Of a stretch of 64,000 bases of DNA, positions 21,091-64,000 are shown piece by piece. The stretch covers positions 9,381 through 73,380 of IMG/VR virus record IMGVR_UViG_2513237213_000004; one strand, 5' to 3'. Source of the DNA: a virus. Its lineage: Duplodnaviria > Caudoviricetes. Position numbers and translations under genes: made by a program. How positions within the stretch are numbered: the first letter of the stretch is position 1; each line of letters begins with the position of its first letter. Under the pieces are notes generated by a model that was given only the letters and a program-made list of their open reading frames with translations, was not told where the DNA came from and ran no database searches.

Positions 21091-21162
21091 ACAATGGTAT
21101 AATTGTATAACTGTGTACCATTACGCCATTACACTGCTATACAATTACACCATTACAATGGT
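21091..21162. repeat. Octamer array 1 (9 units, 8-bp period)
   Basis: ACAATGGT ATAATTGT ATAACTGT GTACCATT ACGCCATT ACACTGCT ATACAATT ACACCATT ACAATGGT. Confidence 0.85.
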
Positions 21163-29452: not shown

Positions 29453-30412
29453 TTACTTTAAATGGTATTTACGGAAATGCTCTTGGATTTTCCGTAACCG
29501 AGCCTTGGTATAGCCTGGATGCTTCGGATACCAATCTGATAATGGGATAAGCCCCTTGGCTCCGTTGCAATCAGTACAAGCCGGGACAATGTTCTCTATG
29601 AGGTCAACTCGTTCCGGGGACACCTTGGCCATCACCGATTGAGGAACCAGGTGCTCCGGGATAAGAGCCACATGCTCTTTACCGCAATAAGCACATTTAT
29701 GACCGAACTCCTTTTTAATCCGTTCCCATTCCACAGTATTACCAAAGACACCATTGAGGGACACCCACCGCCCGGTCTGACTCCGGATAATCGTTTTGGA
29801 CTCAATACCAACCACGAACTCTGTCATTACCTCCATAGGCACATGCTCCAAAAGCCATTCCTTGACCGTGATATTGATTGCCGAAGAATATGGAACTGTA
29901 ATTCCAAACCACTCACCAATGGCATCATAGAAATCCCTCGGTCTGTTGCCAGGAACCGCACCGATATACCGAGACATGAGATTATCAAAGGTATAACGCG
30001 GATTTACAAAGGGCTTGACCACTCCAGATTGCATAAGCAAATCCTTTAGGTCATCCAACTGTTTACCAACGCTATCCACGGCAATCTCATGTCGGCTATC
30101 CTGGGACACCAGCGGAAGCACATCATGCGTTACCCACCGTTGGTATTCCTTGGCCGTTCCCTTCCGGCTGCTGAAAATCAACCGGTAAATACCAGGAAGG
30201 CTTACTGCGTTCATCTTCTGGGGGCCACCAGGCGTATCCATGGTTATCATCCTGCGTTCATCGGCATCTAACCGGGAAACCGCATCGCGACTATTATGGA
30301 TATCCAGGGCCTCGCATACGTCATTTGCGACGTACCACCGCAAAGGGCCTATTTTCTGACTCCGGACATCATCAAAGATGCCAGAGCCAAACATAGATAC
30401 TTCATTGTTCAT
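29453..30412 (-). CDS. Bro-N domain/HNH endonuclease fusion
   Basis: N-terminal WYVANDVCEAL...YRLIFSSRK.TAKEYQRWVTHDVLP (Bro-N); C-terminal CAYCG...EH..P...ENIVPACTDCN..KG (HNH). The ATG at 30412 overlaps the upstream stop (ATGA); track start is 30448. Confidence 0.8.
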   Translation of the reverse strand: MNNEVSMFGSGIFDDVRSQKIGPLRWYVANDVCEALDIHNSRDAVSRLDADERRMITMDTPGGPQKMNAVSLPGIYRLIFSSRKGTAKEYQRWVTHDVLPLVSQDSRHEIAVDSVGKQLDDLKDLLMQSGVVKPFVNPRYTFDNLMSRYIGAVPGNRPRDFYDAIGEWFGITVPYSSAINITVKEWLLEHVPMEVMTEFVVGIESKTIIRSQTGRWVSLNGVFGNTVEWERIKKEFGHKCAYCGKEHVALIPEHLVPQSVMAKVSPERVDLIENIVPACTDCNGAKGLIPLSDWYPKHPGYTKARLRKIQEHFRKYHLK

Positions 30413-30537
30413 CGTGTCTTGTGATTGAAAATTTCTTTTCTCGCCCACCGCTTATCGTCCCGGTCCTTTACATGTCTGCGAAGGTCCTTGGCTTTCTTGA
30501 CGTGACGCGGATGGCGCTCTTTTTCTTCCATGCTCAT
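30409..30537 (-). CDS. 42-aa basic hypothetical protein
   Basis: SD GGAGA; MSMEEKERHPRHVKKAKDLRR...; stop coupled to the next ATG. Confidence 0.5.
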   Translation of the reverse strand: MSMEEKERHPRHVKKAKDLRRHVKDRDDKRWARKEIFNHKTR

Positions 30538-31286: not shown

Positions 31287-31342
31287 ATACATTTACGCCA
31301 TTACACCGTTATAACTGTATACCTTTACAATGGTATAATGTC
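31287..31342. repeat. Octamer array 2 (7 units)
   Basis: ATACATTT ACGCCATT ACACCGTT ATAACTGT ATACCTTT ACAATGGT ATAATGTC. Confidence 0.8.
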
Positions 31343-31355
31343 GTATATTTTCATG

Positions 31356-31425
31356 TGGCAGTCAAAGGAGTCGAACCTTTACCTCTGCTGGAATCGCAGT
31401 GTTCCTACCGTTAAACTATCCCGCC
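31356..31425 (-). pseudogene. Degenerate tRNA/tRNA-like element (Gly-TCC-like, shortened anticodon arm)
   Basis: Intact D arm GTTT-AACGGTAG-GAAC and T arm AAAGG-TTCGACT-CCTTT; acceptor stem has 2 mismatches; anticodon arm CTGC-GATTCCA-GCAG is about 2 nt short. Confidence 0.65.
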
Positions 31426-31426
31426 A

Positions 31427-32151
31427 TAAAAGGGGCCTGCGCCCCATTCCCGTTTAGGCCACGGGCAAGACCTCTGCAATCAAACCTACAACTCATTGCA
31501 GCCCTTAGTTGTCGTATAAGGTTTTTAGACCACGAGCAGAGGAACATCGAACATACCAGCTACTAGTGCGAACACCTATCTGTAATGCTCTATGAACCCT
31601 TGTTCTCTTGTGGCAAACTAGGTACGGTAGCTACACTTCTTTTTTAAGAAACCTATTGACTTTCCTGGCTCCCAGGTTATACTTTCTTGATTTCCAGGAA
31701 ACGGCTTCGGGCAGACTATCCCCTGCAAAGGAGATAGATTAGACTGTCCGTAGATACTTTCCGTCATTCCGAGGTATCCGTATCCGTGGTGCTCCTGCCA
31801 ACCAATGAAATCATCGGTCAGCCATAGCCTATCAGTCAATTACGCCCCAGACTGTCCCAGGTTTCCCCGGCAAGACTATGAACCCTTCCCACCACCGTTA
31901 TCGTGGCAGTCAAGCGATTAACCCTCCGCGCCCTATTTTTAACCATGGCTTTCGCTTTAGGCTTAACGAGGTCTTGCAGCGCTTTTCAACCCCTTTGGTA
32001 ACTCCCCAATAGCACCGAACAGACCAGGGAGGCCCCGCATATTCTCTGCATCAGCTATGCGACACTGGCAATTTATATACCGCAGGCAGCGGATAGGAAC
32101 CAGGCAGCGAAATAACGTATGCCACCGGGAACCCCTTCGGCTCACACCGAC
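31427..32151 (-). ncRNA. Candidate long structured RNA A (about 725 nt)
   Basis: Strong promoter, no credible ORF or SD, many hairpins, ends in GGGGC-GCAG-GCCCC-TTTT just before the tRNA-like element. Confidence 0.55.
31656..31683 (+). promoter_or_regulatory. Antisense promoter TTGACT-16-TATACT inside RNA A
   Basis: Read directly from the sequence; A/T-rich UP-like tract upstream. Confidence 0.5.
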
Positions 32152-32157
32152 AAATAT

Positions 32158-32186
32158 ATTGTACTCTTGTTAATCTATATTGTCAA
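32158..32186 (-). promoter_or_regulatory. Sigma70-type promoter TTGACA-17-TACAAT driving RNA A
   Basis: Near-consensus; nearly identical to the promoter at 56751-56779. Confidence 0.8.
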
Positions 32187-44915: not shown

Positions 44916-44971
44916 ACGCCATTATACATGTATACCATTGTACCATTACACCATTATACAGGTGTAAATGT
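44916..44971. repeat. Octamer array 3 (7 units)
   Basis: ACGCCATT ATACATGT ATACCATT GTACCATT ACACCATT ATACAGGT GTAAATGT. Confidence 0.85.
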
Positions 44972-45092: not shown

Positions 45093-45440
45093 TCATTTTT
45101 CTAACTCACCACGATAAAGTTGTAATGCCTGTGTCGCGGTCAGTTCATCGAAGGAATTTTCCAGGCTGCCTAACAATTTCATAGCTTCATCGCTGGCCAT
45201 GCCTGTGTTTTTCATGGCAAGGACAATATAAGCCAGAACAATGTCATTGAAACGGCCCGTGTCGAAAAGTTGGCAGCTATTATACTCAGCTTCATCCAAT
45301 GTTGTCATCGGTTTCACTTCGGATAATCCTTTGAGTGCTTCCTTCAAGGCTTGCTTGATGCTTTCCGGGGACCGATCCGGGTATTTCTTAGAAAACATTT
45401 CAAGTAGTTCTGCTAAGTTTTCTAACTGTGTATGATTCAT
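45093..45440 (-). CDS. Hypothetical protein
   Basis: SD AAGGTGG before the ATG at 45440 (track start 45521). Confidence 0.65.
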   Translation of the reverse strand: MNHTQLENLAELLEMFSKKYPDRSPESIKQALKEALKGLSEVKPMTTLDEAEYNSCQLFDTGRFNDIVLAYIVLAMKNTGMASDEAMKLLGSLENSFDELTATQALQLYRGELEK

Positions 45441-58967: not shown

Positions 58968-59015
58968 ACGCCATTATAACGGTATACTGTTATACCATTA
59001 TACATGTATACCATT
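58968..59015. repeat. Octamer array 5 (6 units)
   Basis: ACGCCATT ATAACGGT ATACTGTT ATACCATT ATACATGT ATACCATT. Confidence 0.85.
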
Positions 59016-61579: not shown

Positions 61580-61775
61580 TCACATTGGTCATGCTATATA
61601 GAAAAAACTTTTAGAACAGAGGTGAGAAATGCAGCAGAGTAATCAAGGCAAGGCATAAAGTCACATCGATATCTTGGATTAGAGAAAAAAGATTATTTAA
61701 GAGAGAAAGATACGACGTAACAAAGGGGAATGTTACGAGTTGACCGCCAGATGGTTTAGAAAAGGAGAAATTAAA

Positions 61776-62135
61776 ATGAGAACTTTGAATAGGGTTAAGG
61801 AGCTTCGAGTCGCGAAGGGCCATGAGAGCCAGCGAGAATTCGCGAATTTCGTCACGAATAACTTGGGTTGCCCGGTTTCCTATGGAACAATCAATAAATT
61901 GGAAAACCAGAATGGAAACCCAACATGGGAATTATTGGATACGCTCGCTACGTACTTCCAGGTATCCACGGATTATCTAATGGGGAGAACCAATAAAAAT
62001 CTTGCGGTAGCAGCGCATGTCGATGAAGAACCAGGTGACGAGTTACCCCCCGAAGCCAAAATCGCCGTAGACACATTCTACAATAAGATGAGGGCTTTAT
62101 ATGGTAAAAACAAAGGAACTGTGGAAAATAGCTAA
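61776..62135 (+). CDS. XRE-family repressor (CI/ImmR-like)
   Basis: NRVKELR..SQREFA..TINKLENQNGNPT..LA.YFQVSTDYLMGR; SD AAAAGGAG. Confidence 0.88.
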   Translation: MRTLNRVKELRVAKGHESQREFANFVTNNLGCPVSYGTINKLENQNGNPTWELLDTLATYFQVSTDYLMGRTNKNLAVAAHVDEEPGDELPPEAKIAVDTFYNKMRALYGKNKGTVENS

Positions 62136-62640
62136 AGAAGCAAATGTATTTATCGGTTACGAGGATTTTAGTAACATACACCCTGGGATATATATCAGAG
62201 GTGAAATAAATGTTATTGGCCTGGACAACCATTTAACGCCCACCGAAGAACGATGCGTTCTTGCAGAGGAATTGGGACATCATTTTACTTTGCCGCCAGG
62301 TATGGACTTGAGAGAGTCACATAGGTACGGCATTTTACAAAAAAGAATATTTTATGAAACCATCGCGCGTGAATACGCAGTCAATCTTTTGATCCCATAT
62401 GACCAATGGGAAAAACTTATGAAAAAAGAAGATACTACAATTGAAGAAATAATGACAACATTTGATGTGACAAGGGAATTCGCCTATTATTGTCTCGATA
62501 TGTACTTCTTCGGCACTATTTTCATAAATCCATATAAACATATGGAGGGGATACCAGGTGACCGAATAGAAGAAGAAAAAGAAATACTAGCAAGGTGGAT
62601 CTCTGACATTAAAGTTCAGATAGCTAAGAAAGCTGCATAA
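62101..62640 (+). CDS. ImmA/IrrE-family metallopeptidase (anti-repressor)
   Basis: ERCVLAEELGHHF..E..AREYAVNLLIP; directly follows the XRE gene. Confidence 0.88.
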   Translation: MVKTKELWKIAKEANVFIGYEDFSNIHPGIYIRGEINVIGLDNHLTPTEERCVLAEELGHHFTLPPGMDLRESHRYGILQKRIFYETIAREYAVNLLIPYDQWEKLMKKEDTTIEEIMTTFDVTREFAYYCLDMYFFGTIFINPYKHMEGIPGDRIEEEKEILARWISDIKVQIAKKAA

Positions 62641-62643
62641 AAA

Positions 62644-62680
62644 GAAACCCCAGGGATGATAAAGGTTCCTGGGGTTTTTA
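62644..62680. terminator. Intrinsic terminator after immA (T-tracts on both strands)
   Basis: AAACCCCAGG-loop-CCTGGGGTTTTT. Confidence 0.8.
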
Positions 62681-63292
62681 AATGGGGAAAATGAGAACTT
62701 GGGGAAGTGTGTTTGTGCGTGTCCCCATCCGCAGAAGTCCTCTGTCTAATCATCATACGAAACAGGGACTTCCTACCTAGTATAACATATGCAAAAAAAA
62801 AAAAAACAGTTAATCTCTATCTTTGGGCACAGTCCGTTTCTAAGCTACTTCCTACTACGCCCGCCGCGATAAGCACCCCTGAAACGCTTCGTAACGCCCA
62901 AACTTTGACATGGGAGATAAGCACTAAAACTATCTAAATTCATCGTATGTTTTTTTAAACTTCTTATTGACTTTAGCGTTATTTTATGATGGAAGCCGAA
63001 GGAAACGGGAGAGCAAAGCATAGTGCTACCTTAGACATCGAAAAGACAATAGTCTACTGTAGCACTACAACGAAAATTGATGGAATCCGTGAGGTTTCCG
63101 GTGTCGCTTTTCGCAATTCAATTAGTCATCGTCACTACAACGATACAGAGGTTTCATAGTGGTCTAAGTACCCCACACTACCACGCCCCTCGACGTGTTC
63201 CTCTGGCCCGGTTTATTTCAACCGTACTCTAGGCTCAATACCAATGTATCTTGCCCTTTTAGCCCCCGCAGGCTTCTTAACGCTCCATAAAC

Positions 63293-63334
63293 AAAAAATG
63301 CGTTGGTCTAATAGCCTTCCACGGCCCCAACGCA
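63293..63334 (-). terminator. Terminator/attenuator hairpin inside RNA B
   Basis: TGCGTTGG...CCAACGCA followed by T6. Confidence 0.55.
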
Positions 63335-63584
63335 CTGTCTATCTACGCTTATTATGGGAGTTAACCTGTTCTTCACCCACTTAGGTCATCGTCCTGTATT
63401 GAATAAACCAGGACGAACCCCGCCGACTTACTGCTGCCGCTGGCGATACGGTGGACTCTCTATGAGTTGCCAATTTATATACCGCCTGCTCGCGGTGGCA
63501 TCCATGCTTTCCCAGAATAAGGATCTGGGCGACCTATGGCGGCTTCTTCTCGCCATTGAGGACCATGAAACACCGCACAAGAAC

Positions 63585-63613
63585 TTGACGAGTCCCTTGT
63601 TTATATGTATAAT
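63585..63613 (+). promoter_or_regulatory. Promoter TTGACG-17-TATAAT (extended -10)
   Basis: Read directly from the sequence. Confidence 0.8.
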
Positions 63614-63619
63614 GGACTC

Positions 63620-63694
63620 ATAAACCAAATGTCAATCCGCCTGTTTGTGCGGTGATAGGACCTGGAAGTACGCCAATACTTCTAGGTCTTTTTT
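63620..63694 (+). ncRNA. Candidate counter-transcribed small RNA (about 75 nt)
   Basis: Bounded by the 63585 promoter and terminator GACCT-GGAAGTA-CGCCAA-TACTTCT-AGGTC-T6 (63659-63694); no ORF. Confidence 0.6.
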
Positions 63695-63737
63695 CATGCT
63701 CTTTTTCGATTGTCATGCGTGATTATCCAGCGTTTTC

Positions 63738-63780
63738 TGTGGATAACTGCTATGCTCATATATTATCATAGTTATCCACA
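63738..63780. promoter_or_regulatory. Two perfect, inverted DnaA boxes
   Basis: TGTGGATAA at 63738-63746 and TTATCCACA at 63772-63780 (11-bp inverted repeat, AT-rich spacer). Confidence 0.8.
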
Positions 63781-63788
63781 AGAGTCAA
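63760..63788 (-). promoter_or_regulatory. Promoter TTGACT-17-TAATAT with a DnaA box in its spacer
   Basis: Read directly from the sequence. Confidence 0.65.
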
Positions 63789-63858
63789 TAAGGTTTATTC
63801 AGAAATGAACCATATTTTCTCTTGTGTCCCGCGAAAACACTGACCTCTTTGAAATTGA

Positions 63859-63981
63859 ACGCCATTACGCCATTACACCATTATACATGTGTGATACCGT
63901 TATAACGGTGTAATGGCTTGACTGTATAATGGTGTAGCGTTATAATGTTACACAGGTACAACGGTATAATAGTATAATGAT
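63859..63981. repeat. Octamer array 6 (about 15 units) containing a plus-strand promoter TTGACT-17-TATAAT (63918-63946)
   Basis: ACGCCATT ACGCCATT ACACCATT ATACATGT (gtg) ATACCGTT ATAACGGT GTAATGGC TTGACTGT ATAATGGT GTAGCGTT ATAATGTT ACACAGGT ACAACGGT ATAATAGT ATAATGAT; an SD GGGGAGG follows at the window edge. Confidence 0.9.
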
Positions 63982-64000
63982 ATGAAGGGGAGGAATACCA

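Follow-up and report, generated by a model that had tools for sequence, protein, structure and literature searches.

Does a 15-mer that stands twice in a long stretch of viral DNA mark two copies of one RNA and, if it does, what is this RNA for? The stretch, called the window below, is 64,000 nucleotides (nt) long and covers positions 9381-73380 of a 73,380-bp contig (G000:C4; IMG/VR record IMGVR_UViG_2513237213_000004). The 15-mer, CAATTTATATACCGC, occurs there in exact form exactly twice, at 32069-32083 and 63471-63485, the chance expectation in the window at up to two mismatches being 0.23, and the minus strand of both copies reads CCGC-loop-GCGG-UAUAUAAAUUG; both points had been made in an earlier note on this DNA and are correct. 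The same note took the two loci, RNA A around the first copy and RNA B around the second, for paralogues of one undescribed RNA. We consider it very probable that both 15-mers indeed represent one element, present in two full-length paralogues of a large structured RNA family absent from Rfam 15: a model trained on B sequences finds A, the common structure covaries, and Rfam 15 at gathering threshold returned a tRNA match only and no family for A or B. The RNA sits beside parA on plasmids and phage-plasmids of Selenomonas-family bacteria, where it probably starts or controls DNA replication. For this explanation as a whole, i.e., identity, setting and mechanism together, our rough estimate is 0.5.

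The homology of A and B was assessed with covariance models. R1 was built from three B sequences only and was run unfiltered over 93 kb, where it found, besides the B copies, only RNA A (31978-32153, E=3e-5) and the homologue of A in the viral contig G002 (E=0.02). Please note that the score of A, 18.2 bits, is as low as that of the highest-scoring coding false positive among 24 genomes of the genus, in which R1 gave four extra matches (13-18 bits) that look like coding sequence and were rejected. Pairwise BLAST between the A and B types is also weak (E ~0.02-0.3) but collinear. With such a weak R1 score, the case for A and B rests on the small search space, the collinearity and the shared structure. 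If instead A and B were non-homologous, the 15-mer and the helices would be due to chance or convergence and only B would belong to a plasmid RNA family; an R1 score for A that does not exceed coding false positives in other genomes, the BLAST values and the use of A in training the later models R2 and R3 all agree with this. It can hardly be right, however, given that both A copies are the only non-B matches of the B-only model in 93 kb, that the motif order is the same over ~500 nt (also between A and the contig G134 introduced below), that the common structure covaries between A and B, and that the 15-mer is exact.

The second model, R2, was built from a five-sequence alignment of A and B in which 95.9% of the cells are paired and covariation reaches 0.46 vs 0.19 in shuffles, with 0 of 500 shuffles as high. 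Outside its training set, R2 matched Megamonas G076:C2:44931-45088 (52.9 bits, E=1e-11 per genome) and G134:C20:6460-6611 (42.1 bits, E=1e-8 per genome). When all seven sequences are aligned, 95.5% of the cells pair and 17 of 27 pairs are changed on both sides, a number reached by none of 500 shuffles; slid controls of the same alignment gave at most seven such pairs, and RNAalifold independently recovers the same four helices. G-U pairs, including an invariant U-G, take up 22 of the 177 cells (~12%) of this alignment, indicating a minus-strand-specific fold. A, B, Megamonas and G134 share at least ten conserved blocks in collinear order, which reach ~500 nt. The alignment of A with B extends well past the 15-nt core, and both loci lie inside long minus-strand stretches that hold no open reading frame (ORF) and follow sigma-70-like promoters. 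Between the conserved blocks lie variable hairpins that carry insertions, a pattern typical of structured RNAs.

The core that A and B share starts in its 5' part with a U-rich-loop hairpin, a variable hairpin, the hairpin Hc and the UAUAAA junction, and continues in its 3' part with a 4-bp helix carrying a UCGC loop and followed by GAUGC, then GCGGGG, a 9-bp helix, ACCUAAGUGGGUGAA and a closing helix; more conserved blocks lie 3' of it. Hc occurs as CCGC/GCGG, CUGC/GCAG, CACU/GGUG or AGCC/GGCU, and UAUA(A)A comes after it in every case. The 15-mer consists of the 3' arm of Hc and this conserved UAUA(A)A junction, and in the relatives the hairpin and UAUA(A)A are the only conserved parts of the 15-mer region. 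All of the following elements are on the minus strand. The core domain of A (31960-32096) scores 108.7 bits with R2 and 103.3 bits with R3, scores that are not independent because RNA A belongs to both training sets; it holds Hc (CCGC 32092-32089 with GCGG 32083-32080) and the junction UAUAUAAAUUG (32079-32069), together 32069-32092, as well as the helices Hg (31997-32036) and Hk (31968-31993) with a conserved ACC-AAG-GGG-UGAA strand between them (31968-32036 in total). The core domain of B (63346-63532) is matched by R1, R2 and R3 and contains Ha (63511-63529), Hb (63498-63507), Hc (63482-63495), the junction (63471-63481), Hd' (63437-63451), Hg (63384-63421) and Hk (63354-63380).

Within one genome, the Hc variant is the same in A and B, namely CCGC/GCGG in the window (32080-32092 and 63482-63495) and CUGC/GCAG in G002; outside Hc, A clusters with A and B with B (window; L102, L116, L117). 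The shared variant suggests short-patch gene conversion or selection for a genome-specific partner. We also considered GCGGTATATAAAT as a sigma-70 promoter. It has a conserved -10-like hexamer, which is TATAAT in G001 and G002; the promoter reading was rejected because no copy has a properly spaced -35 and because the preceding stem covaries.

The kinship of A and B had been argued in the earlier note from a conserved 5-bp closing helix with a compensatory G-C/C-G swap. The 5-mers are present and complementary, UGGCA 32124-32120 with UGCCA 32070-32066 in A and UGCCA 63500-63496 with UGGCA 63472-63468 in B. As a conserved helix the pairing fails in the relatives of A and of B alike, and its variable positions covary with other partners. 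In the B family (n=3), 73% of the cells pair, no pair is changed on both sides and three of the five pairs are broken in at least one sequence, a result equal to shuffles; the UGC of the claimed 5' arm pairs instead with a GCA just upstream to form the short variable hairpin 63498-63507, which has two compensatory changes (one pair being G-C/C-G/A-U and the next C-G/G-C/U-G). The A family (n=2) has no both-side change in the claimed helix either, and the two positions that vary are compensated elsewhere. Column 40 (C to A) is matched by column 53 (G to U) within a local hairpin, GGUGGC/GCUGCC, at 32103-32126 (minus strand; three both-side pair changes relative to G002), which absorbs the claimed 5' arm. 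Column 96 (A to G) is matched by column 109 (U to C), i.e., A-U becomes G-C, within a downstream helix at 32047-32071 (minus strand; UGC-CAGU/GCUG-au-GCA), which absorbs the claimed 3' arm. This downstream helix begins directly after the UAUAUAAAU junction, and its inner 4 bp are the helix 54-57/66-69 of the seven-sequence alignment, where one pair shows four pair types. The claimed 5' arm is therefore the 5' arm of a local hairpin in A and the 3' arm of a different hairpin in B; the two 5' arms are non-homologous positions, and A and B accommodate the G/C difference of the 3' arm with different partners downstream. The claimed helix is also missing from the minimum-energy folds computed for A and B as single sequences. 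The covariation check proposed at the time thus comes out positive for Hc and the shared core and negative for the closing helix: the earlier note is wrong in its specific evidence and right in its main conjecture that A and B are paralogues of an undescribed RNA.

How widely is the RNA found? Exact matches to CAATTTATATACCGC in IMG/VR number 94 loci, which is about the chance number estimated for a 15-mer on both strands at an assumed collection size, and none of them fits R2; the exact 15-mer is consequently not a general signature of the RNA. A database search with a covariance model of the core, also suggested before, did bring up relatives in other genera. Rumen viral contigs related to the window were found via the terminase gene. 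The TerL-based locus search gave eight viral-contig, six metagenome and two genome loci, among which a homologue of A occurs in G002 only and B in G001 and G002 only. Altogether the family was seen in 3 of ~200 Selenomonadaceae species genomes searched plus two IMG/VR contigs. Searches with R2 and R3 at E-value cutoffs of 0.001-0.01 found none in ~130 other Negativicutes or ~147 other genomes of the phylum, and no further members in the genera to which the two positives belong. In IMG/VR, stricter multi-block DNA patterns returned the known G001 and G002 copies only, and blastn of RNA B against PLSDB and phage records gave no match.

The Megamonas match lies on NZ_CP048628.1 (G076:C2), a 46,189-bp circular plasmid of Megamonas funiformis JCM 14723 that carries a type IV secretion system, a MobA/MobL relaxase, topoisomerase III and ArdA, with no replication initiator among its 54 annotated coding sequences. 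The contig G134 comes from a third genus within this bacterial family. The only protein common to the phage-plasmid of the window, the Megamonas plasmid and the G134 contig is ParA (31-42% identity), and in all three parA adjoins the B-type RNA, which diverges from it at a distance of ~0.5-0.7 kb.

The window belongs to a circular phage-plasmid of 73,380 bp. It is customary to write finished circular replicons from a gene such as parA, and the ATG of the ParA ATPase gene is the first base of the contig; this start, the phage genes (terminase, portal, a 2280-amino-acid (aa) tape measure and ribonucleotide reductase) and the replication genes (primase-helicase, a T7-type single-strand binding protein and a DnaE-type polymerase) led to this reading. 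The closest named relative is a Selenomonas ruminantium metagenome-assembled genome, and the host family is accordingly given as Selenomonadaceae.

RNA B is an ORF-less predicted transcript with inferred ends (62790-63752, minus strand; ~750-950 nt) made of a leader, the core, an internal terminator and a 3' domain. No sense-strand ORF longer than 66 aa is present in 62690-63750. The RNA is 71-74% identical over ~650-780 nt in G001 and G002, and 30 of the 108 pairs that RNAalifold places in its 5' domain have both-side changes. The sense promoter, TTGACT-17-TAATAT with TG, is at 63760-63788 (minus strand) and is overlapped by an inverted pair of perfect DnaA boxes (63738-63746 and 63772-63780), the only perfect boxes in the 64 kb. 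Megamonas and G134 have sense promoters equivalent to this one. Perfect boxes occur in four of the five B-type loci, as an inverted pair in the window, G001 and G002 and as one box in G134; the Megamonas locus has no DnaA box and has five ACTACTAAA repeats. More precisely, NZ_CP048628.1 at ~45300-45380 (L140:15300-15380) carries five direct repeats ACTACTAAA(A/G) and three GTTTATA; these repeats are iteron-like and lie within the antisense-covered region, where the phage-plasmids carry their DnaA boxes.

On the plus strand, a small counter-transcribed RNA of ~75 nt is predicted at 63585-63696 from a promoter (63585-63613, TTGACG-17-TATAAT, 11/12 consensus) and a terminator hairpin (63657-63690) with a CGCCAA loop, i.e., UUGGCG on the sense RNA. 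It overlaps the leader of RNA B (63752 to ~63560). Counter-transcripts were predicted from promoters and terminators in the window, Megamonas (antisense promoter 12/12 consensus) and G134 (10/12 with TG), and from the alignment in G001 and G002. All five B-type loci have a hairpin with a UUGGCG/CGCCAA loop, whose plus-strand side is the small-RNA terminator; the plus-strand loop is CGCCAA in the window, G001 and G134 and TTGGCG in G002 and Megamonas. The order common to the five loci is sense promoter, long UUGGCG/CGCCAA-loop hairpin, backward-pointing small-RNA promoter and RNA core.

After the core of B, the sequence reads as an intrinsic-terminator-like hairpin with a U-run (63293-63334, minus strand), found at the same place in G001, G002 and Megamonas and absent in A and G134. 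This terminator is built from differing hairpins, with an extra GC-rich stem in G001/G002 and a short perfect stem in Megamonas; it may be a regulated stop that gives short and long forms of RNA B. More than 400 conserved nt lie beyond the core and this terminator, followed by a T-run. A bidirectional terminator (62650-62690) separates the 3' end of RNA B from two overlapping plus-strand genes convergent with it, one for an XRE-type helix-turn-helix (HTH) protein (61740-62135) and one for an M78/ImmA-type metallopeptidase (62101-62640). As a side remark, this pair is likely a repressor/anti-repressor lysogeny switch of the ImmR/ImmA kind.

RNA A follows a TTGACA-17-TACAAT promoter (11/12 consensus) at 32158-32186 (minus strand), and an equivalent promoter precedes its homologue in G002. 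The family-homologous part, ~520 nt without a credible ORF, covers 31630-32151 (minus strand) and is 74% identical to L102:5975-6500 of G002 over ~470-520 nt. The A loci have no leader, no DnaA box, no UUGGCG/CGCCAA hairpin and no antisense unit, and their promoter is fused directly to the core. After the core part come a separate 3' module of ~210 nt (31430-31640, minus strand), which matches no Rfam family, and the terminator of RNA A (31432-31445, minus strand). The module is conserved in G001 (L101:7108-7316), which is without an A core, and also occurs in G002 (L102:6851-7061), where ~390 nt are inserted between module and core. The order that follows is terminator, tRNA-like element, terS-like gene and terL gene, with other promoter-like motifs before terS. 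The tRNA-like element stands directly after RNA A (31356-31425, minus strand) and gives 36.3 bits with the Rfam tRNA model; ARAGORN calls nothing there. It has acceptor-stem mismatches and an anticodon loop without the usual U33, and may be a degenerate tRNA or a tRNA mimic.

Could the RNA be a cis leader, such as an HK022 put-like antitermination element, a riboswitch or an attenuator that heads the late and replication operons? Both copies follow strong promoters and stand upstream of the two leftward gene blocks, and B has a terminator just after its core. B, however, is parted from the replication block by the convergent immR/immA-like genes and the bidirectional terminator, and the next downstream gene is convergent in all three B-type contexts that were mapped, the window, Megamonas and G134. 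The record of downstream genes that the earlier note called for hence shows that RNA B leads no operon. A, for its part, ends at a terminator before the tRNA-like element, with promoter-like motifs of its own before terS, and in B more than 400 conserved nt extend past the core. Neither RNA lies in the leader of an operon it would control, as a put-like element does. The convergent genes, the terminator and the tRNA-like element remove both the antitermination leader proposed earlier and the riboswitch, and we regard any cis leader as very improbable.

Among the functions suggested earlier, a replication primer appears to fit the context best, in view of the adjacency to parA, the DnaA boxes, the antisense RNA and the lack of a recognisable Rep gene. 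Taken together, an ORF-less region of ~1 kb beside par, DnaA boxes, a kissing-loop counter-transcript, no recognisable initiator and portability would amount to a plasmid replication-control signature. In such a replicon, the origin would be primed or opened as the region is transcribed and the transcript folds, as with RNA II of ColE1; copy number would be set by the antisense RNA through a kissing contact with the leader hairpin, and DnaA would act at the promoter of RNA B. RNA B would then be the copy-controlled form for the plasmid state, and RNA A, with its consensus promoter fused to the core, would serve lytic or induced replication without such control. That the RNA is the active molecule of a replicon without a recognised Rep gene, with B copy-controlled and A uncontrolled, has in our view slightly less than an even chance. 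The wider form of this proposal, a Rep-less replicon class of Negativicutes plasmids and phage-plasmids in which an ornate RNA of ~0.5-0.8 kb is the initiator and in which B, throttled by DnaA and the kissing antisense RNA for low-copy maintenance, and the unthrottled lytic A make an RNA-level lifestyle switch, is tentative and rather unlikely to hold in full.

ColE1-type replicons, with an RNA II pre-primer and an RNA I antisense, are the obvious comparison. Alike are the long structured ORF-less transcript beside plasmid maintenance functions, the short counter-transcript with its own promoter and complementary to the 5' part of the long RNA (here predicted; 63585-63696 on the plus strand, opposed to the sense promoter 63760-63788), and the lack of a recognisable initiator gene nearby. 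The present RNA differs in having no sequence or Rfam similarity to that system, in its occurrence in Negativicutes rather than Enterobacteria, in its larger size with a core conserved across genera, and in the DnaA boxes at the promoter, the internal terminator and the second, antisense-free copy on the phage-plasmid; its primer function, moreover, is a proposal. Neither RNAI nor any other Rfam plasmid RNA family matched 62600-64000 or the related loci at E up to 10.

The loop sequence has another parallel. In ColIb-P9, the Inc antisense RNA has UUGGCG as its recognition motif, according to the title of Asano et al. 1998 as cited in PMC10724649 and PMC3753616. As in Inc RNA and CopA (IncI-alpha, IncFII), UUGGCG or its complement lies in the loop of a counter-transcript hairpin, here in all five B-type loci. 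The target in those systems is the leader of a rep mRNA; here there is no ORF, the downstream genes are convergent and the strand that carries UUGGCG differs by locus. The VBR1 replicon has protein initiators (PMC12753305) and is not a relevant comparison.

The dyad symmetries could also act as DNA, either as a pLS20-type origin or as minus-strand single-strand initiation hairpins, with transcription only helping the opening. Covariation alone cannot separate RNA from single-stranded DNA, and oripLS20, a class E theta replicon of the Bacillus plasmid pLS20, is, in the relevant sections of its descriptions, ~1.1 kb long, free of a typical replication gene, provided with DnaA sites and located beside a partition module (PMC8557374; PMC9743546), its mechanism being given there as not known (PMC8557374). 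The resemblance is one of layout only, an ORF-less module of ~1 kb with DnaA boxes beside partition genes: oripLS20 adjoins alp7AR, with the actin-like Alp7A and not ParA as partition ATPase (same sections of PMC8557374 and PMC9743546), and those sections mention no RNA or antisense RNA. R3, run with filters off over NC_015148.1 60000-65774, gave at best 5.9 bits (E=0.4) in the ori region, so by model search the element is unrelated to oripLS20. Correctly oriented promoters precede the element in every locus scanned, the antisense unit implies an RNA target, and the ~12% of G-U cells with their invariant U-G would be weak in DNA and impossible on the opposite strand. We hold an action at the DNA level to be improbable.

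Several points weigh against an RNA-driven replicon and should be taken together with the weak R1 score of A. The complete related phage contig G003 is without either RNA and G001 is without the A core, indicating that A is dispensable and that this phage group also has other replicons. The cumulative GC skew of the phage-plasmid and of the Megamonas plasmid tracks gene orientation and locates no origin. Iterons in place of DnaA boxes, as in Megamonas, usually imply an initiator protein, and unannotated hypothetical proteins could be novel initiators, e.g., on the Megamonas plasmid the product of a 549-aa ORF (539 aa in the annotation) without a Pfam match. B has a conserved terminator in mid-RNA for which the proposed mechanism does not account, and a fold this large and this conserved exceeds the need of a simple primer.

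The main rival explanation is a stand-alone ornate RNA with a trans role unrelated to the start of replication, for example as a par or stability partner, as an anti-defence decoy or as a self-assembling RNA in the manner of GOLLD or ROOL, that travels with the par module as conserved plasmid backbone and whose antisense RNA merely sets the RNA level. We regard it as unlikely, yet deserving of attention. GOLLD and ROOL often sit in phages next to a tRNA-like element, and RNA A adjoins such an element in a phage; the present RNAs are, like them, large, ornate, non-coding and phage-borne, with at least ten conserved blocks and many covarying helices. The RNA also heads no gene, G001 can do without A, and G003 has neither RNA. 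In contrast to GOLLD and ROOL, the family also occurs on a conjugative plasmid and is tied to parA, DnaA boxes and an antisense RNA, and the Rfam models of GOLLD and ROOL gave no match at gathering threshold or at E up to 10, nor is any other Rfam family similar up to that E-value. DnaA boxes and an antisense unit with a UUGGCG loop are hallmarks of replication control, and the Megamonas plasmid has no recognisable Rep; both speak for the replicon and against the stand-alone RNA.

One Rfam family, throat-1 (RF03110), aligns to the 15-mer motif of RNA A, and it is the only one to do so, at 18.3 bits (E=0.03) where the gathering threshold is 124.4. It has a first hairpin with UAUAAAU, a 4-bp helix, a G-rich strand, a long helix and CCUAAAUGGUAGAAGA in the order seen in RNA A. 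It did not match B, G001, G002, Megamonas or G134 at E up to 5-10, and none was found in 151 genomes of the family. We take a kinship with throat-1 as a lead, not as membership.

If the RNA-driven replicon is correct, what would follow? Replicons driven by an RNA and not by an initiator are textbook matter only for ColE1-type plasmids of enterobacteria, and, to our knowledge, the Rep-less pLS20 origin has stayed mechanistically unexplained since 1995. Here, a conserved, covarying and strand-specific RNA is found where a Rep gene normally sits, on unrelated elements of gut and rumen Negativicutes. If this RNA is the replicon, it would be a new plasmid replicon type for bacteria without typing schemes and genetic tools, vectors for Selenomonas and Megamonas could be built on it as a minimal origin, and the switch of a phage-plasmid between controlled and runaway replication would find a simple explanation. 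Even with its function elsewhere, it is a new family of large structured RNAs whose boundaries are clear and which lends itself to structural studies.

Two further observations concern the surroundings. A 331-aa ORF (29453-30448, minus strand) between the terS-like gene and terL has an Ant/Bro-type N-terminal domain and an HNH-endonuclease-like C-terminal part, and it may encode a homing endonuclease or a packaging accessory. The 17-mer TATAACGGTGTAATGGC has seven copies in the window at up to three mismatches (0.19 expected), with sites at 21125-21141, 31297-31313, 44942-44958, 58970-58986, 63861-63885 and 63901-63917. Copies are grouped as inverted repeats before parA, one separates the tRNA-like element from the terS-like gene, and similar CCATTA(C/T)A repeats are present at the same places in G001; the motif looks like an operator, a centromere or a phage-specific promoter motif.

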